From Rhizaria sp. SCN 62-66 (lineage: Eukaryota): a stretch of 64,000 nt of DNA. Positions 17,232 to 59,200 of the stretch are shown piece by piece; the first letter of the stretch is position 1, and every line of letters starts with the position of its first letter. Where the stretch lies: the NCBI GenBank assembly GCA_001724265.1, contig MEDY01000029.1, positions 1 through 64,000 of the forward strand. The letters run 5' to 3'. The notes under the pieces are model-generated. The model was given only the letters and a program-made list of their open reading frames with translations, was not told the DNA's origin and searched no databases. A program made the translations under genes and the position numbers.

Positions 17232-18587
17232 ATGCGTGTCGCGTCCGCGTTTGCGCTCGTCGTTGCCGTTTTTGTTGCGGCCGCGCAGTCTGCCTCCACG
17301 ATGTGGACCGGATCTCTTTATACAAGCACTCTGGTCGCCGGTCGCACTAACGTCACCTTCACTGCGTCCATGCGCCCCGGCTCGGGCAGCACGTCGACAA
17401 CGATTGTCTCCGGTGACTATCTTGTCATGCGTCTTACGGGCGCGTGGGCAACTGAGAACGCTGCTGCGACGTGCAAGATGAGCAAGCGCACCCGCAGCTA
17501 CGACTTGGACGCAAGCTACTACACGTCAGGAACCTCGAGTTACAATGCCGAGGGTCCCGAAGAGGGCGAGCGCGTGATCGGTGTCCGGCTGAGCAACAAG
17601 TACACCGCATCTGGCAGCGAGTACACGAATCTTATCTGCCTTGTCACGATGCCCGCCTCCGCCGTAGGCAAGGTCTCGCCGGTCGTGAGCTCCGGCTACA
17701 GCTCCCCATTCGATGACGTGTACATCGGCGCCGTTAGCGCAACCACGGTCAGCGAGGAGCCGGCCACTTAGGTCGCCAACTATTGGATGAAGTTTACCAC
17801 CAACACATTACCGACTAAGTCATTTAACGCGCTTACTCAGGTATTCTTCAGCAACATCAAGAATGATGCTGGTATCCCGCTTTCCATCGCTGCGGGCATC
17901 CGTTCCGCTTACTTCTACCCCGCCGGCACGCCCCGCGCGCTATCTAAGCGCGCCGCGCGTGAGGCTGAGGCCGCCGCTGCGCTTGACATAACCCCGCGCG
18001 ACGTTTTTATTGCTGCTACTAATAGCGCTGACGAGAAGGGCTCGCTCGTTGTCGAAGTTAGCATCACACCGTCAATTGATAACACAGCGTCTGAGCTTTC
18101 GAGCGTCGTGACTACAGAGGGCTTTTCTACCACCGTCAACGCGTATCTTGCGCGTAGTATTAATGGCGAACTGACTGACACAGAGGCGTACACTCTATTT
18201 GTGCCCGGAACGTGCAGCGATGGTGTTAAGGATGGGGAAGAGACTGATGTCGACTGTGGTGGCGGCGAGTGCTACGCTTGCACACTTAAGGAAACTTGCA
18301 AGGTACGAATCATTTCTTTTATACGTACGTATTTGAACCGATCAATGAATATAAATAAACGAGTTGCAAATTCACTAATGCCAGCTCACATTGACGTTAT
18401 TTGTCAATGAATTGTTTCAATTCATACGTGTCTATATTCTACTTAGGCTGACAACGACTGCTGGACCGCAGACTGTGACTCTTCGTCTTTAAAGTGCGTC
18501 AACGCTGCCACTGCCGGAGCTGCGACCACTGCTGCACTTGCCACCGCTGCATTTGCCGCTTTTTTTGCGGCCTTCCTTGGCTTCTAA
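17232..18587 (+). CDS. Secreted, putatively GPI-anchored surface protein with a Cys-rich CxDGxKDGxETDVDCGG module (one in-frame TAG)
   Basis: Signal peptide MRVASAFALVVAVFVAAAQSA. Exons 17232-18302 (TAG at 17769-17771) and 18447-18587. The C-terminus NAATAGAATTAALATAAFAAFFAAFLGF-TAA resembles a GPI signal. Confidence 0.75.
17769..17771 (+). other. In-frame TAG (putative sense codon) #1
   Basis: EEPAT*VANYWMKFT. The flanking ORFs 17211-17771 and 17787-18410 are in the same frame with no AT-rich intron between them. Confidence 0.7.
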
Positions 18588-19479
18588 AGCACGCATATGA
18601 CATACAAAGCTCAATCGCCCGAAAACTGTTTATGAACAAGCCTATTACGTCCTTATCAAAGTCCATGTGAGCGAGGGTAGAGAGCGGTATAGTATGTACA
18701 TGTATTTCAGTGTGGTTTAGTGCGCGCTTAAATGTATGTCGTTCCATACGACGGCACAAAAAAGCGAACGCTTATATGTGTTAAAGTGGCCAGGCTAATA
18801 CAACGCGCAGACGACTTTAGCGAAGAGTTTAGATAGATAATGTGGTAGAGCTAACAAGGTGATCCAATAGAATACACAAAAACGAAAAGACACGTGTAAA
18901 TATATAATAGCACAGAAGCAGATGCAACAAAACTAGAGTAACAAGATGTTTGATCGTGACAGCAGGCAGCAGACAGAAAACGAAATCAAATCTAGAAAAC
19001 GACAATAAGTGAAAAGTTCATACAGAAGATGTGACAGTCAAGTGACAGCAGCAAAAATGAGCCTCAACAATCTCTTGAACTCCAACTCAATGAACGAGCA
19101 AGTGGAAGAGACGGCAAGCTATCAAACGGTGTGTGTTGCGCTGCAGTTGCAGCAGGATAGATATGAACGAATGAAACAAGGAACACACAAAGACGATGAA
19201 CTTACTCAAATGCATGTTCAAAAATCATATGGAGCATGATCGTAACATGAAGATGAGGTTTGCTATTTTGCGTGCTTACGTGAAAGACTTGGCAAAGACA
19301 GTGACAAACGATGGCAAATACAATAAAACAACAATACATATCCACTGGTAATATACAAAGAATAAAGGACATACATATACAATACAAACTACTATAAAGA
19401 ACTACTTTGACTAATTTCTTCGCGCAACACACACAAAAAAATTGCATTATTTGATTATAGAAAACCACAGCGCACAGTT

Positions 19480-19531
19480 TGTGTGTGTGTGTGTGTGCGT
19501 GTCCATCGTGTGTGTGTGTCCATCGTGTGTG
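19480..19531. repeat. (TG)n microsatellite with a duplicated GTCCATCGTGTGTG unit
   Basis: Seen directly in the sequence. Confidence 0.85.
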
Positions 19532-19635
19532 CTTGATGCATCGTGGACGTACTTACCCACGACTTCAAGCACCACACGTACATGGATACGAGTTTTGGTG
19601 TTGGATTCGGCATGGCCTTTTGTGAGGTTCGCAAT

Positions 19636-25447: not shown

Positions 25448-26707
25448 TCAGATGGCCTTGACCGGAGCCGGGGTGCCCGCAATCGCCTTGCGCGCCAGCT
25501 GATACGCGCCAGTGAGGCCGAGGCAGAAGTTGACGAGGAAGAGAGAGTAGTTCTTGGGCGTGATGACGAGGGAGTAGCGCGCCCAGATGAAGCCCGTGGC
25601 CGTGAGCGCAGTCTGCTGCGCCATCGAGACCGACTCGATCGGGCGGTTGAAGTCGAGGATGTTGGAGATGGACAGCAGCCACTTGAACATGGGCGCCCAG
25701 CCGTGGATGGTGAAGGGGCCCACGGGGGACTCGACAGCCTGGGGGCGGGGCGAGGCACGTGCAAAGGAACGAGAGTGACGACAATAGATGACGAGAGCGA
25801 AGAAATACAAAGTGAGATATGTTGACGTACTTGAATACAGATAAGAAATAAACGGTGGTTTATCAGTGAAATTACGCGAATATACAGGATTCAAGTTGAT
25901 ATAACTCTCTAGTGGCACGGATATCAAGTGATAGTTGGGGAATATGGAACACTATCGTACCTTCTGAACCGTGGCGGGGAGATTGGGGTTGCTCAGCAGC
26001 GCGCGCTTGATGGGCCCACCGGCAACCGCGAGACCTAGCGTGCCCGCCGTGGCCAGCGCAGCAATGACAGGGTTGAACTGGAGGTCCTTGGAGGTGACGG
26101 AAGGCGCGGCGGCGGCGGGGCGGAGGGCGGCGGCGCCAGCGGCCTCGGCAGCGGCCATGCCCTCGATGCGCGCATCGGCAACCTGAAACAGAGCGAAAAA
26201 AACATAACAGTGCAAGAATAAGCACAGCGTTAGTAATATGTGCGTAAAATATAAAATCCGGGAAGCCTGGACTTGTTTTTGGTGCATTGAGCGCGACTGA
26301 GACGGAAACAAAGTGACACGTGAGAACATGGGTCTTGACGGAGGTGAATGTGGAAGTGGACGTACTGCGGCGTTAACCTTGTGAGCAAGCTGATGCTTGT
26401 AGCCGCGCTGAAGCTGGTAAAGCTGGGCGCCAACGTTGAAGAGGTGGCAGGCGAAGAGCAGGTGGTTGCGGGGCTGCACCATCCACGCAAAGCGCATGAA
26501 GACGGCGGAGTAGGCCGCCATAGTGCAGGTCATCTTCATCGAAATCACGTCCGGGGGCTTCGTAACAGCATCCGTCACGGCTGCAGCAACAAGACCCCAG
26601 TTTGCGACGGGGCCCCAGAAGTGTGTGGTCTTCCACCCGTGCTCCGGGTGCGACATAGCGTCGATGAAGCGACGGCCGATAGAGCGGGCGGGGATGCTGG
26701 CACTCAT
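25448..26707 (-). CDS. MPC: Mitochondrial pyruvate carrier, MPC1-MPC2 single-chain fusion (280 aa)
   Basis: Exons 26707-26378, 26182-25961 and 25738-25448, all phase 0. Domain 1 THFWGPVANWG..FMRFAWMVQPRNHLLFACH is MPC1-type. Domain 2 GPFTIHGWAPMFKW..TGFIWARYSLVITPKNYSLFLVN is MPC2-type. Ends in TGA. Confidence 0.88.
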
Positions 26708-27137
26708 CGAGCTTCTGCGGGCGGGAATTCGAGCGCAACGCAGAGGAAGAAGCAACAAGGCGAAAATTAGCAAAATAATTTAAATAAATCGACACATATG
26801 GCAGCATAATCGGAGCATAACTGGAATCAAGCGCGGTTGTAACTCGTTAGGAATGCATTCGAAAAAGCAGACAACCCGAACCGTTGCCAGGATGGTCTGG
26901 CCGCGGTCAGCCTCGTTGCCCACAGTCACTAGCGCGCGCATATCAACATGAAGTGACTTGAAATTAATGTGGGTTCGTTTTTATTTTATGCGTTGTAATT
27001 CTAGTGTTTATTTTACGTCTTGTTCTAAAATACTCTGTTCGTTATCTTCGCTTCCCTCCTAGTATGCTTTCTTCTTGTAAAAGCATCAACTTGATCTTGC
27101 TTGCCGCACACGACATTGACGCGCACTGTAACTCACT

Positions 27138-30100
27138 TTACTTGTCGACGATGCTACTCGGAGTATTATTGCGGTCATCATTGGCCAATTTCTCGCGCAC
27201 GCGCGCAATGACCTTTTGCATCCGCTCTGTTTCAATGGGCTCAGGGTCCTCCCAGTCTGTGCGCGGTCACGACGAACAAAAGCAATAACATCACGATATT
27301 TACGAGAAAATATCAAATTGTAAGATATATGGCCATGAATCGTTGGCATACTATTTTTCGACGCATTATATTTAATTCTTATCAGTTTTATGAAATAGAA
27401 AATGTTCTGTTCAGTTGCATATAATGAGTTTTTCTAAACGTACCAGTCCACTGCCCCTTGGCGGCGCCGTGCACGCGCGCCACCAGCACCTCCCGCAGGC
27501 GCGCTGCCCGCACCAGCAGCAGCTCCGCGGAGCGCATGTCCCCCGCTTTATGCGCGTCGGCGCCAAAGTTCCACGCGCGGCTGCAGACTGCGCGCACGAT
27601 TACGGCCGCCATGCTGCGCGCTGTGTCGCCGCCTGCAGCAGCAGCAGCACCAGCAGCACCAGCAGCCTGTGACTGCATGCTGCCGCTTGCGGAAGGTTTG
27701 CATGAGGGCGGTTGTAAGCCACGCTGTGATTGAGCGTCAAGGATGTCGATGACTGAGTCCGAGGGCAGTGCGAAGGCTGACCACGCAAGTGCACCGGCGC
27801 CGATGCCGGTGCCTGAACCAGGAAGAGTGCTTGCGAGATCAGCATTGGCGTTTGTGAACGGGAGAAGCTTGTCAGTGACCCCGCCGGTGAGCGAGTAAAA
27901 GCTCGCGACAGCGCTGCCGCCGTCGGCCGCAAGCATATCCCACCTCACACGGTCACCGGCAGTGACCACAACACTCGCGTTAATCGGACGAGTGTCATCA
28001 CTGTCAGCGCTGTCGGACATCACGGCTCCACTGATACTTGCAGTCGTCTCTCCAGACTGATGTTGTTGTAAACGGTGTTGTTGCAGCAGTGTCTGCGCCT
28101 CCGCGGCTGCTTTGTCGAGCGTCGCAGTGAACACCCGCTGCGCACAGTCAACCGCGCCCGCAGCGTCAGCGCGCGCGACCGCGGCCTCGGCCGAAGCAGG
28201 GGGCAGCGCGGCGTCGCGCTGTGTCATGTAGGCAAGCAGTTGAGCAAAGATCGCGAGCAGGCAGAGGGGCGAGACTTTGCGTAGGTGCAAGCACAAGTTC
28301 AGCGCGTCCTAACATTCCAAAAATTGCAGTGACAGTGAACATCGTGAGATCTTATATTTTAAGGTGTCGCATGAGACAAAACGTTGATTACATGAGATAG
28401 CGTCCGTTTTTATCGAGGTACACGTACTTTGGTGAACATAATCGCAAGGTCAGCGCGGCCAGCTGCGAGCGCGGCGTCAGTAAGAAGCTTGCATGCGACA
28501 GCGTCTCGTACCAGCGCAGGATACAGCGCCTACAAATCACAAACAAAGTGAAGAAATAACCGGAAGACATATGAGGCGAAATATCAGTTCGATATAGGTC
28601 AACATTTGAACAACATATGTTGGCCTGTGATTAGATAAGGCGAACGTACCTTGATGTAAGTGTACATCTCCGCTGACTTTTTGTTCTTGCCTCCCTCTTC
28701 AAGGGTGTTCCGCATTATGAAGACAGAGAGCAGACGGCGATTCTCGCGCACCTTAGCTTCATCAACACCGACACGTTCCGCCTGCTCTACAGCCTCCTCC
28801 AGCTCCGCAGCAGCCGTGTCGGTGCTGCTGCCAGAGACATTACTGTGCGCAGATGCAGACGTCGAGCTCGAACTGGAACTCGAGCTAGAACTACTATCAG
28901 GCATGGCGTGTTGCACCGGTGTAAGTAGCGTTGTGTCACTGTGGAACGCGTCCAAGTAAGGTTGAATCACTCGGTCCAGTAGACTCTGCGTCCGTAGCGC
29001 GCGCAGACGGCTATCTCCAGTTACAATGCTCGCTGACCGTGAACCTGAGCCCAGTGGCTGCGAGCCGAGACTGCGGCCGGTGATGCTGTTGAGAGAGTGG
29101 CCGCACCATTGCACCGAGACCTGCACAGCCGCCATTGCCATCATTGCGCCCGTGCGCGCGATACGCAGCGACAGCGAAAGCAGTTCGCGCGTGGCGATGG
29201 AGTCATGTGCGCACTGTTCACAATCACTCGTGATCTGTTCATCATTTGTTGTTGCATTCGTGCTCTCATTTTCATTTGAGCTGGCACGTGCGCCAAAACT
29301 AGCACTGTCGGTGGCACTTCCTGTTTGGTCTGCATTGTTTGCGCTCGAGTCATGAGTGTCAGTCATCGCTGCTACACTAGAGTCTGCGTTACTATCTGAA
29401 TTGGCTTTAGCAGCTACACTCGCGTTGCACACGGCTTCAGTCAATCCGCGGTCATCTGTCATATCAACAGTTTCAACCCCTGGCTTGCGCTTATCAGTGA
29501 CAGACTGACTCTGTTCGTGACTGTGTGAATGCACTGGCAATGAAGCGGCAACCACACGTAGCCTCACTGCCTCGCGCGCACACGCCCGGGCCAGCGCCTC
29601 AAGCAGCAGACCGCCAGAGTACAGAAGATAAGCTGCGTGCTGTGGCACGACTGCGTTCGCGTGCAGCGCTGACAGCCAGAGCGACTGTGTGATGTCCTCG
29701 AGACCGCGAAAGGTCAGTCCGCCAATCTTGCCGCGAGCTGCCAACTTGGCGCGTGCATTGATGTTTGCGTGAGCAGTCATGTTATTACTGTTTGTTGCAT
29801 GGCGGAAGCGGGTAATTCGATCTGAGATCATTGGCATGGGCATCAACACGGTCGTCTCAGCCGCACTTACGTTGCCGCTGCTAGTGTTATCGCGCATGCG
29901 AACGCGCTGCTTGTTGTCCCAATCACGCTCGCGCTTTAGCAACGCACGCGTGCTGGCGTTGTATCCAGCGGGCGTAGAGGGCAACTGCATAAACTGCAGG
30001 AATAGCAACGCGTCCTGTGAGAGCACCGTTGCAGCACTCGCGAAGTGCTTTGCAAGAGCTTCGTCGTCGCCATCAGTAGGATGTGTGTCGGTATCGATAT

Positions 30101-33100
30101 CGTTGTGATCACCGTCATGCTTGCCGTCATCAGCGCTAACACCTTGACCATCGCCTTTGCCCCGGCGATTGGTCTTGCTCTTGGTGTGACTGCGGGCAGT
30201 TTCAGGGCCATGAGCAGTCCCATCTTCATCAAGCGACTGTGAGGTAATGGGCTTGTCGTAGAGGAGCGTCGCGGCGTCTGTCTTAATAAGAGCCTTAAAC
30301 ACAACCCCACGCTTCACTTCAAGCCTATGCTGTTCATGTGGTGCCTTCAAGTCGGTGTGCTGACGATTGCCCTCAGTCCGCTCTTCTTCCCCTTCGTTGC
30401 CGTGTGCGCAATCAATCGCATTCGTGTGGGTGTCAAGGCTCTGTGATTCAGCAAGCAGGATCTGGACGCGCTTCATCCAGGTATCCTCCTTTGCCTCACT
30501 CTCAGCAATGCTCTTGCGTTTCAGCTCCAGTGTTTCCTTGTTTGGCACCCCGCCGCCACAGTCATCGCGGTCGAAGAGCCCCACCAGCGCACGCAGCGCC
30601 GCTGACAGCACGGGGGCCACGCCGCTGGCGTGTGCGTCGTCGGCCAGCAGACAGAGCATATCTGCGCTCATCGGCGCAGCATGACTGCCGAGAGCTGTTT
30701 TCTCACCGCGCGCAGTGTCACTGCTCTCGAGAATATCCTGAGAAGTAGCAGGCACGACATCGCCAGCGTTCCCGCGGCGGCTGATAGCGTCGGCCACGTA
30801 TTGCGGCACAGTTGCCTGGTGAGACGCGTTGAACGTGGCCGTGCTCGCAGGCTCTGCGATAGAAGCGCTACTCATCGCCATTGTAGCTTCGTCGCCAGGA
30901 TTTGCGACACTTGTGTCTGCCAGAGTCAGCAAACGATTGTGAGAGCAGAAAGAGTTGTTGTCAGTTGCCGCACTCGCACCACCATCGCCATCAGCCATTT
31001 TGCTTGCGGCAACACTCGTGGCAGTTTCGCCGGTGTTCATATCACCGCGTGCGTCACCAATCTCAGTCAAAGCGCCAGCGCTAGTGTTTGACTCAGTGCT
31101 ACCGCGAGTTGACTTACACTGCTGACACGGCGGGAAAGTAACTGTGGGCACCGCAGCCGCAGCGCCGTCGGCCAATAAAGCTTCCAACAGAGACGTTGCC
31201 TTAAGCTCGCATTGTGCCCGCTTCGCAGTGCCAATGCCGCACTCTGCGGTCAGTGCAAGGAGAGTGCGCAGGCGGTGATAGTTTGCAGTTAAGCACGCGT
31301 GACAGGCAGCATCCGCAGTACTGTTGGTGCTACTGTCTATGTTGGTTGGAGCGCGACTCCGAATAGCCTGCTGCCCCCACAGCGACAATGCGGCGGCCTC
31401 GGTAGTGCTACTGCCTTGTCCGCAAATCACATCAACTTGTTCGTCGCTCCTGGTATCACTAAGGTGCATCGCAACAAGAGCGGACGCGGCGGCAAACAAA
31501 GCGTACGCTGTTGTCAGCTGCTTCAGCTCGAAGGCGACCTGCCCGCGTGATTGCAGAAGCAAAGCCGCGTTGCCCCAGTCTAACGCAGGAAACTTGTCAC
31601 TCGCCGCGGCGTCGCTCAAGGTCACGCGCGCACCATCCTCGCTCTGCTACCCACGGTCATCAGCGCTGAGATCGCGGTCATAGTGAGTGTTGTAGTAAGT
31701 GACCGTGAGCCGCGCCCCGCCAGGCAGTAAGCGCAGAGCTTGGTCTAGAAACAAGCCAGCGCGCGCTAACAGGCGGTTGCACTCGGACAGCGCGACAGCA
31801 GGCTCACTGTGCTGCGCAGCCAACTCAGCGGCGGCGCGGCTGTCAGCGGCCGACTCGCCAGCGTGACTGCCAGCAGCTGTCGAGAGACCGTGAGTGGTGT
31901 CGCGGAAGCGGATTGCGTCGCGGAAGTCAGCGCCTGCAAGGGCCCACAGGGCAGCCATCAGGCTTGAAGAGCCAACGGTCACTACAAACAAACGCAAAGA
32001 TTATATGAGCGAGCAAAGGGTAATGCGAGGCTAAGATCAAGTTTGATGACACGGCTCCAAGTATGGTATGCATCTGCCATTGATGTTGTTGAACGAACCT
32101 GTTTTAGCGGCAGTAAGAGCGTCGTCAAACCGTCCTTGGCCGACAAGCCACTGCAACTCTGCTGCCAGCAACGCAGCACCCTGGGGATCCGAGCCAGTTG
32201 TCGTCTCAGTAACTGCGCTTTCTGAACCGTCGGCAGAAGCAACAGCAGTGGGATCGCCCATGTGACTGTGAGTCGGCGTAGCCACGGGCCAGCGTTTGTG
32301 ACCGAGAGCAAACCCGTGATCTGCGTGGGCAACGGCCTCAGCACTAAGTGCAGTCTCAGCAGCAGCAGCCGCAGAGGGGTCTGTGGTGGCCGTTAGCTGG
32401 CACAGCGACTGCAGGTACTTCACAAGCCTACATGTTGCGAAGCAAGACAAAGCATTGGGCAAGTCAGTAATACGATCGTTACAAATAGACAGCAATATCA
32501 TTCATCGACGCACTCAAACAAGAATTTCCACAGACTCGTTTTATGACGTACATTTGCTCCGTCGTGTCCTAGAGCGCCACCGCCTGCTCCAGCGCCTTAT
32601 CCGCGTCTAGCCACGCCTGCGCGCGCGCCTTGCGTGCCGCGACCCCCGCCCCGCCCGCGCGCTCAGCCGCCCGCAACAGCACGCGGCACCGCAGCCACGC
32701 GTTGTCGTGCGTCGCCTGCAGCGCGAACGCGGCGTTGGCGGCCTCGAGCGCGCGCGTAAAGGCGTGGGTGAGGAGGTAGCACGTGGCGCGCAGACGCAGG
32801 AGGCGGCTGCGGCGGGGGTTGTGGTCGGGGTGGACCTGACTGAAGCACGACAGAGCCTGTGTGCCCACGCACAACGAACGGAAGGGGACGCGTTTAGTTA
32901 GATTCGGGAAATAGTAATGCTCAGGTGTGTTCAGCTTCAGTTCATAAAAAAGAAAGGGTCAGCGATATGACTTAATGTACGTACGAGGTCGATCCAGTCT
33001 AGCGCATCGGTGTAATTCTGCTTCTCACAGAGCTCAGCAGCGTTGTTAGACGCTGTCTTGTATATGCTTTCGGCTTCAGCGGCGATCTTAGGGTTGCGCG

Positions 33101-34155
33101 TGAGCTCTGCTGCACGACGCGTGAAGGCGAGAGCGCGGTCGCTGTTGTGCATCAACCAATACTGCGTTATATTTCATCATAAGCAAAGAAAGTCGGAACT
33201 TAAGCTGAATAAAATGCATGCGCTCTAAGTAACATATTTTATAATTCGCATATTTTCTTGGATATACGCTATTATTCGAGTCTAAAGTGACGTACGAGGT
33301 TGCCCATCCAGGCGAAGAGCGTGTAGCCGACGTCGGGCACAGTGGAGACGAGCCGCGCAGTGTCGCCCAGATCATCCCAGAAGCGCAGTGCAGCTGTAAA
33401 CAGCCTCTCTGCAGCTGCATAGTCTCCGGCATCTAAGTATTGAGAGGATTTGAACAAGACAGTACGCGGCGGATAGAAAAAGCTCCGTGAGACACTTGAA
33501 GTGGGAGATCTGTTGTGAATGACTTGTTCAAGTTGAATGCGCGGGGATACAAACGTACCTGAGAACGCGCGGGCAGCGCGGCCGTGGCTCTTAACTAGCA
33601 GCGTTACGTGATCATCGCTTAGCTTGAGTGTGCCCTCATTGCGGATGCTGACGCCGCCGAGACCGAGGCCGGTCGAGAGGCAAAACATGTCGCATGCCAG
33701 GGCACGAACTTGAAGAAAGCAAAGAAGGCATGAAGGAACAATGAATGTGATGTTAAAACATTGGCCAACAATATCTGCGCATCCGAACCAAAATTTACTG
33801 CGTATATTAGTCTACAGACTTACGTTTAGCGTTCTGAAGAGGGTCCATCTCCTTCTCATGCTGGAACGCCTTGGACGAGATGTAAAGGCCCTTCTTGCGC
33901 AAGTCATTACGCACTTCGCGGGGCAGGAAGTGCCCTTGATGCTTATCTGGTGTCGATGACTCAAGAAAAATAGCAACCTAAAATAAGGTGGATGAGAAAA
34001 CACATTGTATTGCATGGAAGATGTTGGCTGACGGACAAGTTGTTGGTGTGAGCATAGGAGAGCAATTTACGTACTTCTTTGAGGACTTCCTTCACGCGTT
34101 CCTTGTCGCTAAAATCATGAACAGACGTGAAAATCCGTTCAAACAATGTTGACAT
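27138..34155 (-). CDS. ZIP4: Meiotic TPR scaffold ZIP4/SPO22/TEX11-like (~1916 aa, 11 exons, two in-frame TAG)
   Basis: Exons 34155-34075, 33977-33824, 33708-33559, 33432-33296, 33161-32985, 32856-32552, 32427-32099, 31981-28650, 28529-28428, 28308-27444 and 27256-27138; all phases agree. Collinear motifs recalled from ZIP4/TEX11: NAKLRALACDMF, RSRLLRLRATCYL..RALEA..WLRCRVLL, LMAALWALAGADF, SADMLCLLADDA, VVFKALIK, DALNLCL and CSRAWNFG..AELLL. Ends in TAA. Confidence 0.72.
31647..31649 (-). other. In-frame TAG (putative sense codon) #2
   Basis: LSADDRG*QSEDGARVTLSD. ORFs 31647-31997 and 28599-31625 are in the same frame. Confidence 0.7.
32569..32571 (-). other. In-frame TAG (putative sense codon) #3
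   Basis: EQAVAL*DTTEQ-AT|GTACGT. The TAG lies 17 nt before a consensus donor whose phase (2) matches the next exon. Confidence 0.8.
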
Positions 34156-42984: not shown

Positions 42985-43793
42985 GCGTCTGAAAAGCGTT
43001 TGTGGTGGAACGATTATCTAGTATAAAACAAGCAATACAGCTTAATTCACTATTATTTTATCAAATCCTATGTTGAATACGTTTATTATTTATCACATTA
43101 TGTTTTCAGCACATCCATGCATCGCTACTGCGAGGTATCTCGGGAAATGCTTTGCAACAGCTGAAATCTGTTATCTCGGCGCTCAGGCGCGTGTCTTTTG
43201 GCAGTCCGCTCGCGTGCCTTTTGGTTCGTGTGAATCGTCTTGCACCTCACGTCATGCTGATGAAGCCGGATATGATATCTGTGTTTAGGGACTGCGTAGA
43301 GTGAAGATTCAGTTTTAATTTGCTTTATGCCACTTCACGAAGTTTGGAAGGCGTCACAGACGTTCTCCGCTGGGCCAGCTCGTCTAACCTCCGACTGTGC
43401 CATCCAAACGAGGATAGGTCTCATGCGACTGACCAAGACGTCAGAAGCGTCTTCCCATAGTATACTTAGGATGTATTATAGGCGTTGTTTGTGCAGCGGA
43501 CGTTCAACTCATCTTAAACTGTGCCTGACCATCCACACGAGAGCACGTGCTGAGCCGACACTCCCGAGGGTGTGGTCGTCTCTAGCCTGCCCGCGCTATC
43601 GTGCCCCAAAGTTCCGTCATATGAACGCTTCTCGCAGCGAACTCACGTCAAACCCACATATCTCACCAATTTCACTTGAATCTGCGACTTGGATTTTGTA
43701 GACCCCCCTTTCGTTCTCTCCCCCCGTCAACTCGTGCGAGTACCGACGAGGCCTCTGCTGTTGTTGCTGCCGCCAGCCCACTCGAGCTAAGCC

Positions 43794-46700
43794 ATGCAAC
43801 ACCAGAGTCCCTACGCGACCCGTGACCAGTCGTCGGACAGCGACGATTCCGACGACGGCGCGCGCCCCCAGGGCCGCGGGTACGTTCCACCCCCACACAC
43901 TCGCCATGTCAATCAATATATCTCCCTTCTTATCTTGTGGTCTGCCAAAAACTCACGCTCTTTCATTGCATACCATTGTTTTGTCTCACAGCCGTGGCCG
44001 CGCGGCCGCCGGCGCCGGCGCCGCAGTCCCCCCTGGCGGCGCTGACGTACGCAAGCAGCGCAAGAACTCCCGCGAGCGCGCGCGCCGCCACGACCTCAAG
44101 TACCTCTTCGACATCCTCGGCACCCTGCTGGGACTCAACTCCAAGGGCAAGCCGGAAAAGTACACGGTGCTGAACGAGGCAATCATGACCATCACGACGC
44201 TGCGCAAGCAGGTTGACGAGCTTAAGGCCGAGAAGGCCGAGGCGCGGATGGACCTCTCGCGCCTCACCACCCTGCTGTCGGCGGCGCAGAACCAGCAGCA
44301 GACGCCCGGCGGCGGCATGGTGTCGGCCACGCACGCCGCCTCCGTCGCTGCCGCGGCCGGCGCCGCCGGCAGTAATGTCTCCGGCGCCGCCGCTGCTGCC
44401 GCCGCAGCAGCCGCCGCGGGCGCCAGCCATCACCACCACCACGGGGCGCACGGCCACAGCCACGGTCACGGCCAATCGGCCTCCGCCGCCGCAGGGCTGT
44501 CGGTGACATCCGCGACCGGCGCACCAGTGGCTGTCCCGCTCAGTTCCACCGCGGCCGCGGGCGGCGTCTACGGAAATGGCCTTGACATGGGCGTCGGTGT
44601 CGGTGTGGGCTCTGCGCCGCACTCGGCTGCCATGCCTACGGGGCTGCCGCTGGGGCCGCAGCTGCACAGCACCACGGCCACGGCCGCCGCGCCCGCATCC
44701 ATGTCCGCGGCCACGGCCGGCGGCGGCAACATGCTCAGCAGCCTTGCCGCCGCCGCCGCCGCCGCGGGCTCCGGCGTGGGACCGAGCAGCAGCACCGCGT
44801 TCGGCAACGTCAGCAGCGGCATGGGCACGGGCATGGTCAACACCACGGGGATCCGCTTCGGCATGCCTGGGGCCGGCGCCGCCACTGCGACTGGCGCCGC
44901 TCTGGGCGCCGGCGGTGCGCACGGTCCTCATCTGCAGCACGCCGGCGCCCACGGTCACTCGGCCGCCCACGGTCACCTCGCTCACGGTCACTCGGCCCAC
45001 GGCCACGGCCACGGCCACCACGCCGGCGTGCACGGCCACTCGGTGGCGGGCCACCACAATCACCACGGCCACCACGGTGCGGCCGGCTCGGTCATGTCCG
45101 AGACCTCGCCCGCGGGCGTCGCGGGCGCCCTCCCGGCCACCACGCCAGGTACGATCACAACTTTGAACACTGATATATCTGGATATCATATGCATACTAA
45201 AACTAGTGTATTAAATTCTCGTATAGTTTGCTAGTATCTCGTTTTGTCTTCTTTCTTTCTAAAATACTCACATATACCTTTCAAATTTTCTCTTTTATCC
45301 ATAATGTAGGCGGTTTGCTCTCTAACCTTGCGGCCATGCCCGGCTCCTCCCTCTCGCTAGGTCCCGGCTCACTCGCCGGCGCGGGCGGCCTCAACAGCGC
45401 CACCAACGCGGGCGCCACGCCCCAGGGCTTTGGCTCCAGCGCCTACAACGCCTTCTCCGTTGGCAACGTCAACATCAACAGCAACAGCGGCAGTGGCAGC
45501 GGCGGCGGTGGCGTCGCGCCCCCCATCTCGCCTACCAACGGCTCCGCGCTGGGTGGCCTGACGCTGGGCGTCGGCCAGATGTCGCTCGCGCACTCCCAGG
45601 GCGCCGCGGGCTCCGTCGCCGCCGCCGCCGGTGGCATGGGTGCCATGGGCGTCGCGCGCGGCGCAGGCGGCTACTCTGGGCTCGGCCTCGTCGGGTCCGG
45701 CTCCGGCAGCAACCTCCGCGGCTCCCCTGGCGCGACCTCGAGTCTCGGGGTCGGCGTCGGCGGGCTCGGCGCTGGGCTGGGCGCCGGTCTCGGAACCGGG
45801 CTCAGCGCCGGCAGCGCGCTCGGCTACGGCGGCAGCGGGAACCTACAGCTCAAGCTCGGCCAGTCCACCAGCGTCGGCGCGCTCGGCGGCGGCGGCGCGG
45901 CCATGGGCAGCACCAACAGTCTTGGCATCGGGCTCAGCAGCGGCAACATCGGTGCCGGCGCTGGCCTTGGCGGCGGCGGTGGAGGCGGAGGCGGTGGAGG
46001 AGGAGGCGGAGGCAGCGGCGGCTTTGGCGCGTACTCGCTAGTTGGCGGCTACGGCGGCGCGCACGGCAGCACGGGCGCGCTGGCCGCGGGCGGGCTGAGC
46101 GTGAACCCCAGCGCCAACACCGGTATCAGCACCGGCGCGGGCGCGGGTGTCGCTGGCGCCGGCGGCAACATGTTTATGTCTGCTTCGACGCCGCACCACC
46201 ACACGCACTCGCTGGCGCAGGGCAACGCGGCGACCGGCAACTCGGCCGGGGTGAATGTGAACAACAACTCTGCTGCAGCGGTGAGTTTAAACGGGGCGAG
46301 CGGTGAGGTCAGCAAGGGGGACTTCATCGCTGTGACAGACAGCGCTCGCACTGCCAACACCGGCAGTGACAACACGGGTGCAACTCTTAACAACAACATC
46401 AACTACAACTACAACAACAACAACAATGCCAATTGCAACAGCAATAGCAACAAAGGTGCGGCGAATGGCACGATGTGTGACGAGGCCAAGTCAGCGTATG
46501 ACGACGCCGCCATGCGTAACGACAACCACACGTAGCAATATGACGATAGCGCAACGACGACGACGTACACGACGGCTATGACGTCATCAAACACGCCCGC
46601 GAACGCTCATCACACCCAACAGCAGCCGCAACAGCAGCAGTACGACGTGAGCGGCCGCGCCGCGTACGAAGCGCACATCGCCGCGCTGGAGCAGCGCCTG

Positions 46701-48284
46701 AACGCGCAGACGCAGCAAATTGCGCATTTGGCCGCGCAGCAGCAGCAATGGGCCGCGCAGGTCTCGGCGCAGCACCAGTCGCAGCTTCAGCAAACGCAGG
46801 CGCAGGCGCAGCAGCTGATCCTGCAGCAGCAGGCGTACTACGCGCAGCAGCAGCAGCAGCACCAGGCCCAGCTCGCGATGGCGCAGGCGCAGGCGGCCGC
46901 GCAGGCCCAGGCGCAGGCGCAGGCCCTGGCACAAGCGCAGGCGCAAGCGCAGGCGTTGGCTCAGGTCAACGCTGCGCAACTGCAGCAACAGCAACAGCAT
47001 CAGTCTGGCGGCAGCGGCAGTGGCAGCGGCAGTAGCCGTGTGATTGGGCTGACTGCGGCGACGATGATGACGTCAACGCCGACCCAGTCTACCGCCCAGC
47101 TTCTCAGCGCTGGCCGCCAGCTGACCGCAGGCTCGATCGCCACCGGCGTCGGCCTGCCCGACCCCGTGGCCGACGACGTCATCACGCTGCTCACGGCCTC
47201 GACCTCGTCGCTCTCGCTCCGCGGCGCCGGCGTCTCCACCGCTGCCATCACCGGCGCCGGCGCCGGCGGAAGCGGCACGGCAAGCGGCAGCTCGGCGGCG
47301 GCGGCGCACCTGCAGCAGCAGCAGAGCCAGCTGCAGCGCATGGCGGCGCTGCGGCGCGAAGGTCTGGCGCCCACCATCACGGCCAGCGCCAGTACCAGCA
47401 ACGCGCACATCACCGCCGGAGCCGGGGGCGGGGGCGGCGCGGGCGGGCTGCCGATGACAGCCTCGGTCGCCTCGCTGTCCGGTGCAGCAATGACGGTACC
47501 GCTGGCGCCCATCGGCCGCCTCACGACGTCCAGCGTCACCAGCGGCGACCCCAGCAACAACAGCAACACCAGCAGCAGCAACGGCCACTCCGCGCTGTTG
47601 GCCGCCGTGCTCACCCCGGTCGGCGCGGCGCTCCACAGCGGGTCGGCGGCTCGGGCTGCGAGCGGCCTCCCTGTCAGCGCCAGTGTCAGCGGCCGCGGCA
47701 GCGGCAGCGGCAGCGGCCTGCAGTCAGCGGCGACCGTGGCTACGAGCGCGAGCTCCACCTCTAACCTCAACATGAGCAACATGAGCGGCGCGAGCGGGGG
47801 CGCTAGATCCAGCGCTATCATCGTCAGCAGCAGCAGCATGCTGATGGGGGGGCTGGGCGGCAGTGGGCCCAGCAGCGACGTGCTGGCGGCGTCGACCTCG
47901 GCGCTGCTGCCGGGACTGCCGGGCGCGCACGCCCACGGTCACTCGGCCGCTGGTCATGGTCACTCTGCTGCTCACGGTCACATGCCGAGTCATGGACGTG
48001 GTGGGAGTACCAGTCCCGCTCTTGTGAGCGCGACTAACCCCAAGAACGGCAGCGACGGTGGCAGTGCCGGCGCGAGTACTGGTGGCGGCTTAACGATGGG
48101 CTCGGCAGCGAAACTTGGCTCTGATCCCGCTCTCGTCACAGTCACCGGCATTAACACTGCTCAAGCGAACCGGTCTGCGTCGGCTACGGCCGCAGTGACC
48201 GCTGCAGCCGCCGCTGCGGCGCTGTCCGCTGGAGTTACGGTCGATCAATGGCTCTCTGCGACTACAAAGCCACAGCAATGTTAA
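43794..48284 (+). CDS. bHLH-leucine-zipper transcription factor with His/Gly/Gln-rich tail (~1405 aa, one in-frame TAG)
   Basis: Exons 43794-43879, 43992-45148 and 45310-48284 (TAG at 46533-46535). bHLH RKQRKNSRERARRHDLKYLFDILGTLL..KPEKYTVLNEAIMTITTLRKQVDELKAEK, followed by a polyQ/QA tract. Ends in TAA. Confidence 0.8.
46533..46535 (+). other. In-frame TAG (putative sense codon) #5
   Basis: MRNDNHT*QYDDSATTTTYTTAMTSS. ORFs 45228-46535 and 46578-48284 are in the same frame. Confidence 0.7.
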
Positions 48285-52172: not shown

Positions 52173-52846
52173 TTACATTTCGCCATCGGCCTCCATCTGG
52201 CGCAGCCGCTGCTGAAGCTCGAGCATCTCCTCGTCCTCGGCGTCGTTGTCGGCGTTGCGCTCCGTATCGGCGCCGTGGGCCTGCGCCTCGGCCTCCTCCA
52301 GACTCTGGCCGACCGGGATGTCGGCATAGTACTCCTGCTCCTGCTGCTGCTGCTGCTCGTGGTGGTGGCCGTGCTGGCCGTGCTGTGGCGAGTGCTGCTG
52401 CTGGCGCGGGGCCGCGGCGGCGGGCGCGCGGCTGCGCATCTCGCGGATCTCGCGCTCCGTGGGGTCCTCGTCCTCGGGGGCGGGCGCGCGGGCGGGCTGC
52501 GTCACGTTGGCGTAATCCTGGAGAGTCTTGAGGTTCGCGTTCAGGTTCGCGTTCTGAGTGTAATGAATAAAATGCAAAATTAATAAGTAGATATGCATGA
52601 GATGTCTGTTACTGTCTCCTAATGTTGGCATGAAGCAAGGCCGCTATGAGCTAGAGCGAGGGGGCGTACCTGGTAGGCGAGAAACTCTTGCAGCTGGCCG
52701 TTGGACATGGCAGTGAAGTAGTCCTTGGAGAAAAGCACGATGTTCTCGGGCTGGAAGCGGAGAACCTCAGTGACGTAACCAGAAAGCAGTGGGCGCAGGC
52801 CTGCGGGCTCCTTGAAGGAGAGAGGGTCAATCTCGGTCGTCGACAT
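52173..52846 (-). CDS. RIIa dimerisation/docking-domain protein (Sp17/ropporin/radial-spoke RSP11-like)
   Basis: Exons 52846-52670 and 52553-52173. N-terminal PAGLRPLLSGYVTEVLRFQPENIVLFSKDYF is a typical RIIa D/D motif, followed by an acidic/Q-rich tail and no cNMP domain. Ends in TAA. Confidence 0.8.
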
Positions 52847-53282
52847 CTGCGATGAGCAGAAACGTTAGGGGAGTCAAAGCAGGGTGAGCGGGGCATAGCA
52901 TACCAGCACAGAGAAGCACAATTGCAACGATTGAAATTAAATATTACAAATAAGTCATTAGATTCAACCTGTATGTATGCATGGCAGGTGAATATGACGT
53001 CTAATGAATGTGTGGGATTACCTGGCAGTTCGTCGTCCAGGTAGCAGTTTCTCTCGCGCAGGTGGCTAGCTGCCCAAGACAACGGCTCGGAGTCGCAATA
53101 TCTCATCATTTCAAGTCACATGTGATTTAGATCGAGATGTGTTTGAATCAAACTGTACTACTGTATACTTTCATGTATAAATTATAGGATATTGAAAGAG
53201 AGCGTGGAGATGAAGATATATAACGGGCGTAATTCCCATAAGATACTACTGTTTCTTACGGCTCTCATGGAATATCTGGCGA

Positions 53283-56200
53283 TCAAAGCTGCGGCATCGG
53301 CGTGAACTCGCACCCACTCGGCCGCACGCCCCGGTCAAACCCTTCGCGGGTGTCGTACGCAAGCAGAAACATGCGTGCCACGATGCACGTCGGGTCTTTG
53401 GCCGCCTCGGCACGCACCGCATCTAACATACTCGGGACTGGAACTGGCACGACGGCAGCAAGTCCCTCCGCCGGAGCATTCGCGCTCGCCACGGGGGAAA
53501 GCACACGCACCGGGACAAGGCGGTCTGCAATCGCGTCGAAAACACCGTTGGTCCCGCTCACGCGCTGCTCCTGGTGTGACTTGACTGCTTCGGGCGGCTG
53601 GAACACGAGGCAGAGGACGTTGTCGACGTTGGCGAGCATCCTCCCTAGCTCTGTATGATATCCGGCAGGAGTCGCTGTCGCAGCAGACGGCGCAGGGAGC
53701 TTGAATGCGATATCGTGAGCTTGTTTCGCCGTAGGCTGCTCCTTCGCCAGCTCAATGCGCCTCTCAGTGGCGCCACACTTGTTGATGCGCGCCAAAAGCA
53801 GGTCGATGGCGAGCAGCAGCGGCGAGAGCGCGTGCTTCACGGCAGGAACACTGGGGACGCGGTCCAGCGTCCAGAGGGCAGGAAGCAGGGCGCAGAATAA
53901 AGCCGCATCAAGAGCATCATCTTTGACCTTGTTTGTCGTGCTCGTGGAAGTGTTGGCGTTCGGCGGCATGCTGTCGTGGTGAGAGGCGTTGACCGTCGTC
54001 GTCGAGGCCGCGAAAGCAATCACCGCGGCCTCAGCGAGTGCTAGCACGAAGGGCCGCATCAGCGGAACATCCCGTTGCAGCACCTGCTGTTGTTGCTGCT
54101 GTTGTTGGTAAGCGAGCAGTGTCGCGCGGACCGCCATCGCTATCAGCACGTTCACGCCCACAGCCGCCATGCTGAGCCGCGGCACGATGTCGCTCGACAT
54201 CCTGACGCCGCCGGGGCCGCTGCCGGGGCCCGCCAGCCGCATCGCGCCGACGAGCGGGAGCATCTGCCAGCGACGCTCCCATCGGGCCAGCACGCGCTCG
54301 CGCCGCCACGGCTTCATGTGCGCGCCCGGCTGCAGCGCGGCCTGCGCGGCGCCAGCGTCGTCGCACGCGCAATCGAGCTCGCCCTGGGCCGCGTCGGCCG
54401 AGGCGAAGGGCGCCGGCGGCCACTGCGCGAGCGCGAGCGAGAACACGTCGATGCTGGCGAGGATGCTGAGCGTGATCGCGGGCGCGAGGCTGGGTAAGTG
54501 CCAGTTCTGGGACTTCCAGGGGTTGCGCTGTGCCCAGTTTTGGGAGGATGCACCAACAGACGCGTTTGCGGTTGGTTGCGACGGCAGCTTGCGAGGGGTG
54601 ATCTGAGGCAGCAATAAGATGTAGATGTTGCTTTCTTTAAGATCCTGCACTGACACAGGGTATTTGAACATCGACGCTTCCTTGAAATCAAATCCTTTTG
54701 TGTGGGTCACGGTCACGCCAGTCGGCCCGGGCCACAGCTCACGGTCTAAAGAAGGATCCATTGTTGCAGCAGCCGTCCCTATTGCTGTTTGAGAAAGTAA
54801 CGACGGTACCTGAGAACCCGCACTCGCAACACCTGTGGGAAGAAAAGAATCCAGTTTGCACAGTTTAGCCGGCGCGCCCTCGATAGCCAGCGCCAGCGAC
54901 ATCAACAGCGGATACAGCAGCGGCGACGCGTCGCCCTTGCTCCGGCTGGTCGCAAACGCCGACAGCGGCGCGGCCGCGCGCGCCAGCTGCAGCGGCAGTT
55001 CGCGCAGACAGACGAGGATCGCAGCGCGCACGGGCGGGTAAGAAGGCGCAATGAACGCGGCCAGCGGCAGCGCAGCAGCGGGACATGCGACCGTGAGAGC
55101 AAACTGTGACATCACGGCGTGCGTGTTCTCCTCGGTGCGCTGGCTCAAGATGTGCCTGGCCTGACTGACCGAACGCGCGGTGGCAAGCGCAAACAGCCTT
55201 TCTGAGTCGCCAAGCGCGGCGCGTTGTGTGGCGTGCGTCGCGTCGGTATTACGAAGCTGTGCCGCATCGAATAACATGCTGAGGGCTTCGGAGCACCTGA
55301 ACAGCGAAGCCAGGGCAAACTTGGCGGCTGATGCAGGGCCGGGCTTCTGCTCCCTGGCAGAGCCGCCACTGCTCGTCGTCTCGAACACCTGAGGCGGCAG
55401 CGTGGCGGCCGCGAGCGCGATGCTGACAGCCGAGCTCACCACCTCCCGCGGCAGCGCCAGGCGCCACGCCGCGGCCGCCCGGAACAGCGGCCGGACCGCG
55501 TGCATGGCGGCGACGAAGAGCAGCCGGATCGAGGTGTCGTGGTCGGCGCGGGTGAGAGCAAACTTGTGCATGCAGAGAATACTGAGCCACCACTGAATGA
55601 TTCCCTGGGAGGTAGCGGGAGTGGTGCGGGCAGGGGCGGGTGTGGACACTGAGGTGTCAAACGAAAACGCGCACGGAAGCCAGGTTGAAAGTGCTTCGAC
55701 GATTGGAATATACAAGGATCGTGTGTAGAAGTTTTCTAACTCAAAACGCTGGCGTTGGCGGACAAACTGAGCGTGTTCTTCGTGGCCGGAAGCGTCTTGT
55801 ACTGGAGGAAGCGCAAGAGGCGACGTTGCACAGTCGCGGGCAAGACCCAACAAATTGGTTAACTGCCTAAATAGCGGCCGCTTAAAAACCTCGAGCACGA
55901 GATGCATGCGCGACTCAACGACCGCGATGCCATCACTATCAGTTGCGCGAGCGCTCGCACCGTCGCGACTGTGGATGCGGCTCGGGTGCAGCCAGTTCTC
56001 CGGTGCCGCAACGCGCACCAAGCGCGCAATGGCGGAGACCATCGCCACTGCTTGCGCGATCGCAGTCGCGAAGAAAAGCGGCGCAGTCGGCAGCAAGCTG
56101 TGAAAGTCGGTGCTTTCGTGCAGAACTGAGACGCACGCAGCGGCACGCCGCTCTGCGTTGTCTGCGTAAAAGTCAGCAACGGCGGTGCTAGACGGAGCAC

Positions 56201-59200
56201 GGCTATTGTCACCGTCGTGAAGGCGGCCACTGGAAGCGTTTCTATCGCGCGCAGCCGTGCTGTCCGAAACAACCCGTCCGTTGATAAGCATGATCGACGC
56301 AGCGTCCGTGTCGCAGTGACTGGTGCGCACCCCCGTGGCCACCACAGGCTCGCTCTCGCACACCGCCAGCCGCGGCGCCGTCAGCGGCACCGCCGCGCCC
56401 GTGCTCACCACGGCGTGCAGCAGCGCCGACACGTTCGGCACCCAGGCGCCGTCGGCCACGGTCCACGCGGCGCGCACCGCGTCCGCCCACACATGCGCGC
56501 CCACTGTCAGCGCATCGCGCGCGGGGAACATAAGCCGCGCGGCCTGACTTGCATCCGCGCGGAGTGCGTGCGGCGGCAGCGTCGCTGTTGTATGCGCGGT
56601 CGCGCGGAAGTTTAACTCAGCGATGACCCGCGCCCCGCGCGCTAACAGAGCGTCGATCATACGCTGCCACTGCTTGCGCTCGCTACTGTTGTCCGCGCAG
56701 CGGCTCGCGTGGCCCGCAGCAGTCGCCGTGAGCGCAGCAGTAGTGGCGGCCAGCGATGCCGCACGCGCGCCGCAGGCCGGCGTGAGCGCCGCGCCGCGCG
56801 AGCTCGCGGACAACGCGTGCTGGGCGTCCCCGCTGCCGTCGCCGCCGCCGCCGCAAAAGCTGCTCTGCGTCTGCTGCGCGATGCTGGCCGCGAGCGCGTG
56901 CTGCTGCTCGGCCGCAAACGGCGGCAGCGGCGCGCAGAGGCCCGGCGCCGGCGCGCGCGACCAGGGCTCCCACCACTGGTCGCCGGGGTCTGCGAAGGCT
57001 CCCATGGCGTCGCCGGTGAGCTGGGCCGCAAGCTGGCCCCACAGCACGCTCTTGACGTCGCAGCAGCGCGCGTAGACCGCCAGGGCGGCGCTGTTCGGGC
57101 CGGACTTGGTGCTTGCGGCCAGTGCAGTTTTGTTGTGATTGAGAATACCGGTGCGTATACCTACTGCAACAGCGGACTGCATTGACTGCAGTAAAGGAAG
57201 AAAATGGGGCAATTCAGGTACGAGTTTCTCGTAGAACAACTCCTCATCTGCACTCGCGGAAGCAGCTGCAGAGCTCGCGTTTGCATTGGAACGCTGCGCA
57301 GCCGCTGTCGTAGACTGCACCGCAACCTCGGCGGGCACGTGCACAAGCGACGAGCCGCGACTGCAGCATGCACACCGCGGCGCGAGCGCGTACGCAAACG
57401 GCACGCGGTGCGAGCGCTGCGTCATCCGCAGCTTGGTGTTGCTGGGCGGGGTGCGGCCGAGGCTGCGAACTATGTCGTCGGGCAGGCAGCCGGTCGCGGT
57501 GAGGCAGACATCGCCGCCGAAAACAGCGGCAGATGCAGCAGCAGCAGCGTAGCCGTCTTGCATGGCGCGTCCGGGGGCACTGGCGTCGCCGCCTGCGCTC
57601 TTTGTGATATGTTGAGCGTCTGCAACCGTGATTGCGTTCAACGCCTCGTTTTTGCTGCTGTTCTCGGCAGTCAGCAGTTGTATCCACAGCAGCACCTTGC
57701 CCGCCGCAGTTGTGTCAAACGGCGCGGTGTTCTTCAGCAGCGCTCGCAGCATATCCGTGAGCGGCGCCACCCGCGCAGCGCTTGAAGTGAGAAAGCTTTG
57801 AGGCAGCAAGTTGCGCTCAGTGCGTGGAGGCAGCAGCATCTCGTTCGCCGTTTCGAGAACGCGAACGACGAAAACCTCGCAACCACTATAGAACCACTGT
57901 GCAGCATTGAAAGTTTGCTGACTTTCTGATGCTGCTGCTGCTGTCGTTGTGGCTCCTTGTGCGTCGCGCCCATGTCCTGCAGTGTCAGTGAGTTGCTGCT
58001 GCTTGTTTCGTGTCAGAGTTGCAAGCGCGTCAACAATCTGAGGGAAAAATGCGTGCAACGTAAAGCTTGACTCGCAAAACGCACACGGGTCTTGCGTGAT
58101 CGTGACGTTGCCCACGACAGTGCTCATGCCGATAGACTGGATGGGAGTGCTGCGAAATTGAGCTAGACTGATCAAAGACCGGAGAAAAATCGCGTGTGTG
58201 ATGACGGAAGTCGGAAACGCCCAGTCTGCAGCCACGTTACATGCGGTATTATTGTCACGTGCGCCAGCGCGGGTACCGAAACTGGCGCTGAAGTCGTCAT
58301 CATCTGCCATTGCGACGGGTGTGTTTGACACGTTGCTGTCGTGCGCAATCATGCTGTGATACGCTGCAATCGGCGTGTGGATGTTGAAGTGAAACGACCA
58401 ATGAGCACCGTAATGGGGTGTGATCGTGCTCTCTTTGCTCACAAACGGGTTTGACGCCACCTGCAACGGCGGTGAGTTCGACTCTAGCTGCGGTGGCGGC
58501 CCTGCTGCGGCCGTCTCTGTTGTTGTTGCGCGAGACACTGCTGTTCCCAGGAGCTTTGCCGCGTTGTCGATCTCTTTCTGCATTCGCCTTTGCATAACAT
58601 ACTGCCACAACGACTGCGTGTGTGCGTCGCCGCAGGCACTGTTGCTGCCGCTGCTGTTGGAGCTTGGAACGAAACGGGTACTTGGCTCGCACAGTGTCGC
58701 CGTCAACAGCCACAGCGGCTCGTTGCACTACGACACCAGCGCGGGGGCTGCAGCGCTAGCTATGGCTGTGGCGTCATCCGCTGTATCAGCCAGTGGGGTT
58801 GTAGAAGCGTCCGCTGATGCTGATGATGAGGCTATCGCTGAGGCGGGCGTTGTCGTTGAGGAAGCCCGTTGGTGTGTCGGAGTCATTTGACCGAGCAGAG
58901 AATGGTTCGCCGACAGTTCAACGCAACTACTACTGTCTGAGTCGTGGTTTGTTGGGCTCGCGGAAGTGCTATTTGCGTGGCCGCCGCTGCTACTGCTGTT
59001 AACACTCAGACGACCGGTACTGATGATGGAAAATGTGAGAGGAGTGGAAGCTGTGACGGCGTTGCTGCTGCGACTATTGTAATGCCAGAGCCACGGTGCT
59101 GTGGCGTAATAGCGTGAAATCAGTGCCGGAATATGTTCCATCGCAGCCGACAGCTCGCTGTACGCAGTCTCAGTCAGCGCTCCACGGTCACTCTCATTGT

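Follow-up and report, generated by a model that had tools for sequence, protein, structure and literature searches.

The 64-kb stretch of DNA analysed here (referred to as the window) has a GC content of 61% and carries long GC-rich open reading frames (ORFs) on both strands, with AT-richer stretches between them. Joins across introns merge several of these ORFs, resulting in a count of 16 genes for the window. Five of these genes contain in-frame TAG triplets, six altogether, which are designated hereafter by their first coordinate in Table 1. A preliminary description of the window had listed the six triplets and interpreted UAG as a sense codon in a genetic code in which UAA and UGA remain stops. 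All six were found where they had been described and, once introns had been mapped, all six turned out to be exonic. When TAG is read through, neighbouring ORFs sharing the same frame fuse to the stretches 17190–18410, 28599–32000, 37490–41713, 45201–48284 and 53283–60356. We consider it likely, with a probability of roughly 65%, that UAG is a sense codon in this organism while UAA and UGA terminate translation, that is, that a UAG-only stop codon reassignment has taken place.

The interpretation of in-frame triplets depends on the gene models. Spliceosomal introns are present in the window; they are few, 116–190 nucleotides (nt) long and AT-rich (29–47% GC as compared to 61% for the genome), and they carry highly uniform signals: a GT(A/G/T)CG(T/A) donor, a branch-like TACTNAC motif and a YAG acceptor. 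Several introns keep the reading frame and therefore mimic stop codon read-through, as is the case for TAG 25952 and TAA 50707. Intron acceptors, which the preliminary description had named as a possible source of error, do occur among other same-frame TAGs: TAGs 36211, 45232 and 52619 belong to introns or their acceptors, and TAG 25952 is intronic and non-coding as well; none of these four figured in that description. Accordingly, gene models could also be wrong at the six triplets, which would then be true gene ends located ahead of separate genes in the same frame, or lie within unrecognised introns. In addition to the existence of frame-keeping introns, the sequence TA/GTACGA at 39251–39258 (+), which matches the donor consensus exactly, agrees with this idea. 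The donor match is treated as a chance occurrence produced by a Tyr-Asp codon pair, because it is accompanied by neither a branch-like motif nor an AT-rich stretch and because the coding signal is kept for a further 2.3 kb. Moreover, none of the TAGs 17769, 31647, 39251, 46533 and 58728 is enclosed by a donor-plus-branch pair, and the 50-nt flanks of four TAGs have 52–70% GC as compared to 29–47% in introns. The exception is the downstream flank of TAG 17769 with 42% GC; the AT-richer stretch that follows this TAG is covered by homology to P0027, a protein from other public contigs that aligns straight across the site. Right after the TAGs, from the following codon on, the coding signal is present again, and the first in-frame ATG lies 6 to 59 codons further on. 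Altogether, we regard wrong gene models as an extremely improbable cause of the six triplets.

The sixth TAG, 32569, is located close to an intron, and its assignment rests on continuity of the frame. This frame joins correctly over the 124-nt intron 32428–32551 into the ORF 32037–32501, which in turn joins the ORF 28599–32000 over an intron at ~31981–32097. Because the frame continues over two introns, TAGs 32569 and 31647 are both internal to one and the same gene.

Table 1. Positions of in-frame and non-coding TAG triplets and of the genes and introns discussed in the text. A slash marks an exon-intron boundary.
Feature	Position	Strand	Remarks
In-frame TAG, codon 180 of surface-protein gene	17769–17771	+	Homologue P0027 aligns across
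In-frame TAG, large exon of 27388–34066 gene	31647–31649	-	Coding score +26 upstream, +17 to +20 downstream
In-frame TAG, exon 3 of 27388–34066 gene	32569–32571	-	17 nt upstream of GTACGT donor of intron 32428–32551
In-frame TAG, acidic Ser-rich gene	39251–39253	+	Coding score +52 to +55 upstream, +62 to +63 downstream
In-frame TAG, low-complexity part of bHLH gene	46533–46535	+	Coding score positive on both sides
In-frame TAG, codon 533 of 2,347-codon orphan gene	58728–58730	-	Coding score weak: +16 upstream, +5 downstream
Same-frame TAG, non-coding	25952–25954	-	3 nt inside intron (AAG/GTACGATAG) of fused MPC-MPC gene
Non-coding TAG, not a gene end	45232–45234	+	Within intron 45149–45309
Joined gene	11588 down to 1844	-	ORFs merged across introns
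Surface-protein gene	17232–18587	+	Exon 1 17232–18302; intron 18303–18446 (GTACGA...TTAG); exon 2 18447–18587; ends TAA
Multi-exon gene with TAGs 32569 and 31647	27388–34066	-	At least six exons; 5' end not fixed; ends TAA 27388
Introns of 27388–34066 gene	33162–33295, ~32858–32983, 32428–32551, ~31981–32097, 28463–28649	-	Included among the introns of this gene
Acidic, Ser-rich protein gene	37601–42984	+	One intron, 41553–41689; ends TAA
bHLH transcription-factor gene	43906–48284	+	Pfam HLH E = 9.4e-9; ends TAA
Orphan 2,347-codon gene	53283–60326	-	Ends TGA

Coding potential around the triplets was assessed by a codon-usage log-likelihood score trained on the long uninterrupted ORFs of the window (7,773 codons; GC content at third codon positions, GC3, of 0.78). 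At TAGs 17769, 31647, 39251, 46533 and 58728 the score of the TAG frame is positive on both sides, whereas the other frames score negative, and this pattern persists when all TAG-bearing genes are left out of the training set. TAG 39251 is flanked by sequence with a GC3 of 0.82 on either side, and the 2,347-codon gene stays open for 1,814 codons past TAG 58728. Neither a frameshift nor a second stop is present in the five TAG-bearing genes, whose ORFs reach a length of 2,347 codons, or in the ~16,500 codons examined overall. In-frame TAG is a rare codon, used six times in these ~16,500 codons or ~0.36 times per 1,000.

To compare TAG with the other two stop triplets, all six frames were scanned for stops flanked in both directions by 40 or more open codons, which yielded 291 cases (153 TGA, 78 TAG and 60 TAA). 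Positive scores on both sides in the best coding frame are confined to seven of these, namely six TAGs, one TAA and no TGA. Two of the seven, TAG 25952 and TAA 50707, sit within AT-rich in-frame introns. With the intronic cases removed, the coding frame is interrupted by 5 of 78 TAGs, by 0 of 60 TAAs and by 0 of 153 TGAs (hypergeometric probability ~0.0013). Our count of gene ends agrees with the one given in the preliminary description: nine of the 16 genes end in TAA and seven in TGA, and none in TAG, the TAA ends at 23358 and 27388 being less certain than the others. TAA is thus the commonest terminator (9/16) despite a GC3 of 0.78, a prevalence that may reflect the replacement of former TAG stops. 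A purine follows 12 of the 16 true stops and two of the six in-frame TAGs, a difference that is not significant.

Conservation across one of the triplets is provided by P0027 (388 amino acids; encoded on a 90-kb contig), which is collinear with the product of the surface-protein gene over TAG 17769 without a gap. Identity amounts to 99/174 residues (57%) before the TAG and to 100/166 residues (60%) after it, and similarity stops exactly where the intron of the gene starts. The equal identity on both sides indicates that the downstream part is as constrained as the upstream part. The P0027 residue in the TAG column is Pro, which belongs to a variable linker. A search of a structure atlas (Atlas) with P0027 gave no usable match; the stored model is poor, with a predicted local distance difference test (pLDDT) value of 0.51.

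Independent sequence data carry the same triplets. Contigs from DNA run X3, which belongs to a different study, cover positions 28500–33709, 38779–39534 and 44943–48013 with zero differing letters and reproduce all four TAGs that could be compared (31647 and 32569 in record 1, 39251 in record 5 and 46533 in record 8), sites 17769 and 58728 falling outside the stretch compared. At the latter site, public protein sets split the orphan gene exactly at the TAG: P0022 ends at residue 532, and P0021 and P0023 begin downstream. A fragment from a second strain, P0024, ends at the same residue 532, the two strains being identical in 530/532 positions upstream and in 980/981 positions downstream. Since the X3 contigs show four of the TAGs and the fragment of the second strain breaks off at the position of another, the TAGs are not assembly errors, a possibility that the preliminary description had raised.

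Several points weigh against a reassignment of UAG. The sample is small, comprising 16 gene ends and six codons. Under the codon usage of the window, 949 of the 1,580 single-base routes from sense to stop (60%) yield TAG, and the chance that six out of six random nonsense mutations are TAG is ~0.05, so that the exclusive occurrence of TAG is by itself weak evidence. A single TAG can be compared with a homologue, and P0027 may be a paralogue, in which case the surface-protein copy in the window could be a young pseudogene. The window contains no tRNA of any kind and no Rfam family, and hence no tRNA with anticodon CUA, and it contains no eRF1 gene either. RNA data come from polyA metatranscriptome run X8, in which none of the listed contigs extends 31 or more letters beyond a TAG in both directions; no changed letter is reported at any TAG, cover of the sites being unproven. 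One X8 contig (32561–32844) includes TAG 32569 unchanged, only eight letters from its end and therefore without properly bridging it. X8 furthermore covers an intron, which points to unspliced RNA or DNA in the run. Finally, the codon is far rarer than in published cases such as that of the rhizarian exLh.

As to the X8 contig across an intron, it spans positions 32828–33084 and thus the whole predicted intron 32858–32983; either the run contains DNA or unspliced RNA, or the intron is retained.

The mutational bias towards TAG, together with the probability of ~0.05, is also what speaks for real nonsense mutations, i.e. for young pseudogenes or for loss-of-function alleles of a clonal, polyploid or heterozygous population that were picked up by the assemblers. 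As at least one relative (P0027) exists, the surface-protein gene may be a dispensable family member; the function of four of the five TAG-bearing genes cannot be checked, since these are orphans. However, the coding signal is undiminished hundreds to 1,800 codons past the TAGs, there is no frameshift or second stop in ~16,500 codons, and conservation is equal up- and downstream of TAG 17769. The absence of frameshifts and the equal conservation downstream are stronger arguments than TAG exclusivity. The preliminary description had reasoned that random errors would also create TAA, TGA and frameshifts: in view of the 60% of routes that lead to TAG, the part concerning TAA and TGA carries less force than claimed. 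In addition, the same TAGs are present in the DNA run of another study, a second strain shares one of them, gene ends lack TAG, and it would be implausible for 5 of 16 adjacent genes to be dead in a compact genome. Nonsense mutations are therefore, in our judgement, quite improbable as an explanation.

A further possibility is that UAG has a dual or leaky meaning. In this scenario, UAG still terminates but is read through sufficiently by a near-cognate tRNA (for Gln, Tyr or Trp) or a weak suppressor, so that the code would be context-dependent or in transition. The low frequency of in-frame TAG is compatible with it, as is the pyrimidine that follows four of the six in-frame TAGs as compared to 4 of the 16 true stops, although this difference is not significant. 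CAG or CAA follows two of the TAGs, which resembles part of the UAG-CAR-YYA context of viral read-through. However, the triplets downstream of the TAGs do not complete the CAR-YYA motif, and there is no structure downstream: the 120 nt from each of the six TAGs fold no better than shuffled sequences (z-scores of −0.01 to +1.25). As no unusual downstream structure is present, read-through seems to be independent of a local recoding signal. Moreover, none of the 16 gene ends uses TAG, and a dependence of 5 out of 16 genes on leaky read-through would be costly. We consider this scenario unlikely.

Editing of the mRNA prior to translation, e.g. A-to-I conversion of UAG to UGG (Trp), would explain why TAG is the only codon found. 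Such restorative editing is described for filamentous ascomycetes, which resemble the window in having genomic in-frame TAGs in genes that nevertheless are reported to yield full-length protein in the fungi (PMC10776026, PMC11156358, PMC4817773). A-to-I editing is reported to correct 71 pseudogenes of Fusarium graminearum, with a preference for U at position −1 and for hairpin loops (PMC10776026, PMC11156358). In contrast, 5 of the 16 genes would be affected in the window, a much higher frequency than 71 genes per genome. Ascomycete editing operates at the mRNA level, is stage-specific and concerns well below 1% of the genes, and TAG remains a normal stop there, whereas no gene of the window ends in TAG, an absence that editing leaves unexplained. 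Folds of the sites with 20-nt or 30-nt flanks do not place the A of UAG in a hairpin loop consistently, and the U at −1 is supplied by the codon itself. A Trp residue would fit oddly into the polar, acidic or linker contexts of the TAGs, and the homologue has Pro. The X8 contig that touches TAG 32569 without properly bridging it shows no changed letter. Restorative UAG-to-UGG editing is thus the nearest alternative mechanism, yet it fits poorly, and we rate it as very improbable.

Taken together, a reassignment of UAG to sense agrees with the exonic position of the TAGs, with the gene ends, with independent DNA and with the homologue, as the preliminary description had it, although the support stays indirect. 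By analogy with known cases, UAG would be decoded by a cytoplasmic tRNA with anticodon CUA, and eRF1 would have lost or weakened its recognition of UAG while keeping that of UAA and UGA. TAG may first have been purged from gene ends and may now be re-entering ORFs at low frequency via point mutation.

Concerning the encoded residue, the preliminary description had opted for Gln, but the arguments put forward do not carry this choice. The sole aligned homologue has Pro in the TAG column, the proposed parallel between NHT*QYDD and HHTQQ..QQYDV falls in low-complexity sequence, and the Gln codons that indeed follow two of the TAGs, CAG or CAA, are uninformative on the residue. Gln is favoured because CAG is a common codon here that is converted to TAG by one transition and because there is precedent; its chance of being correct may fall slightly short of even and reflects a prior rather than a result. 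Leu, Glu, Tyr, Trp and Lys are further candidates. A more specific idea, which we put forward tentatively and hold to be somewhat doubtful, is that a young reassignment has been caught early, in a lineage without sequenced relatives: terminators have been cleared of TAG, TAA dominates despite a GC3 of 78%, and TAG has re-entered at about one codon in 2,800, which would make the organism a natural intermediate of 'codon capture'. In that event, the residue might be neither Gln nor Leu.

A Pfam search with the products of all five TAG-bearing genes matched the HLH domain only. In the bHLH gene, intron 45149–45309 (GTACGA...ATGTAG) joins ORF 43702–45234 to ORF 45207–48284. The product of the gene 27388–34066 has a helical, TPR-like N-terminal part and no Pfam match. 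The surface-protein gene, for which Pfam likewise yielded no match, encodes a secreted protein, probably anchored by glycosylphosphatidylinositol, whose N-terminus resembles a signal peptide and whose C-terminus is a hydrophobic tail. Ahead of the tail, a Cys-rich motif, DG.ETDVDCGG.EC.AC, is encoded at 18200–18302 (+). It is the sole part of the surface protein that is common to many other proteins, among them two that NCBI assigns by name to metagenome-assembled genomes of myxobacteria, Sandaracinaceae and Kofleriaceae (P0032, P0035). For the 2,347-codon gene, a search of the first 1,200 residues (TAG taken as Q) against 1.84 billion representatives retrieved only its own two fragments, and a word search with residues 300–900 among proteins of 1,296–4,125 amino acids gave no match.

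The source of the window is a cellular eukaryote, because Pfam finds bHLH, mitochondrial pyruvate carrier (MPC), Fe-S assembly and other domains in its proteins. The complete set of matches comprises bHLH, two MPC domains in one gene, Fe-S assembly, glyoxalase, GNAT and an SF1 helicase; most other large proteins of the window have no Pfam match. Very large protein collections yielded no close relative of either the SF1 helicase or the largest protein. Window sequence occurs in public runs from bioreactor, wastewater, activated-sludge and fuel-cell metagenomes (six studies), which indicates an uncultured organism; DNA runs X1–X3 contain 96–100% of the words sampled from it. Scans of GTDB contigs and of viral contigs gave no match to its sequence. 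A metagenome scan with an MPC exon retrieved 19 loci, the best of which is 69% identical; 18 of the 19 are AT-rich (36–45% GC). None of them is a close relative, and the organism is one without a close sequenced relative.

The two MPC domains are encoded by a fused MPC-MPC gene at 25448–26713 (-), which has two introns and in which Pfam recognises MPC in two stretches (E = 2.6e-62). Its nearest metagenomic relative (locus L001, 3704–4519; 37% GC) is 69% identical in the second domain and has the same fusion as a single ORF of 271 amino acids. A small two-exon gene at 52173–52864 (-) has an N-terminus that, judged by eye, resembles a RIIa dimerisation/docking domain. A giant-virus origin of the window, an idea prompted by its Pandoravirus-like GC content and ORFans (orphan ORFs), was dropped in view of the cellular genes (MPC, bHLH, Fe-S assembly, RIIa-like) and the lack of a match among viral contigs. 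A trypanosomatid origin was likewise dropped after cis-spliced introns had turned up. That the organism may be linked to the Sainouroidea, which live in dung and sewage and include exLh, is no more than an idea that arose from PMC5304391.

UAG and UAA rarely differ in meaning; PMC5304391 and PMC11687900 record this for two lineages outside the ciliates and for a few within them. Such cases are relevant to the question whether the two codons are mechanistically coupled. If UAG is sense in the window, a further non-ciliate and GC-rich case with very sparse UAG would show how a reassignment starts, and the order of events would become visible, that is whether loss of the terminator, a suppressor tRNA or a change of eRF1 comes first. 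There is also a practical side. Standard gene callers split the proteins of the organism at every TAG, as is visible from P0022 as opposed to the P0021/P0023 halves, and therefore eukaryotic bins from wastewater metagenomes would be mis-annotated. In the open-access literature, we found no report of a code with UAG as sense codon in a eukaryote from wastewater.

Precedent for a UAG-only reassignment in eukaryotes does exist (PMC5304391, PMC11687900). In the fornicate Iotanema spirale, UAG encodes Gln and UAA and UGA are stops (PMC5304391). On the reading favoured here, Iotanema and the window are alike in having UAG as a sense codon with UAA and UGA terminating, and a Gln residue in the window would make the two code tables identical, namely NCBI table 15 (TAG = Q). 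In contrast, Iotanema is an anaerobic metamonad, whereas the window, with 61% GC, has genes for MPC and Fe-S assembly domains, and UAG usage in the window is far rarer than in Iotanema.

In the rhizarian exLh (Sainouroidea), UAG encodes Leu, as PMC5304391 reports: 384 UAG codons were found in 71 genes, mostly at conserved Leu positions, while true stops are limited to UAA (56) and UGA (15). ExLh and the window share the features that UAG alone interrupts genes and that stops are confined to UAA and UGA (nine TAA and seven TGA in the window). They differ in that the six UAG codons of the window are spread over ~16,500 codons, none of them at a conserved column.

Phyllopharyngean ciliates provide both meanings, as PMC11687900 describes: UAG is Leu in a TARA lineage and Gln in Hartmannula and Trochilia, and suppressor tRNAs with anticodon CUA were found. 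The ciliates and the window would have in common that UAG alone is reassigned, and they share UAA as the preferred stop; the ciliates use UAG widely as a sense codon, whereas the window would do so sparsely. Finally, the window is unlike a ciliate genome: it is GC-rich and intron-poor, its genes are long, its intron signals resemble those of yeast, and it contains a bHLH gene.

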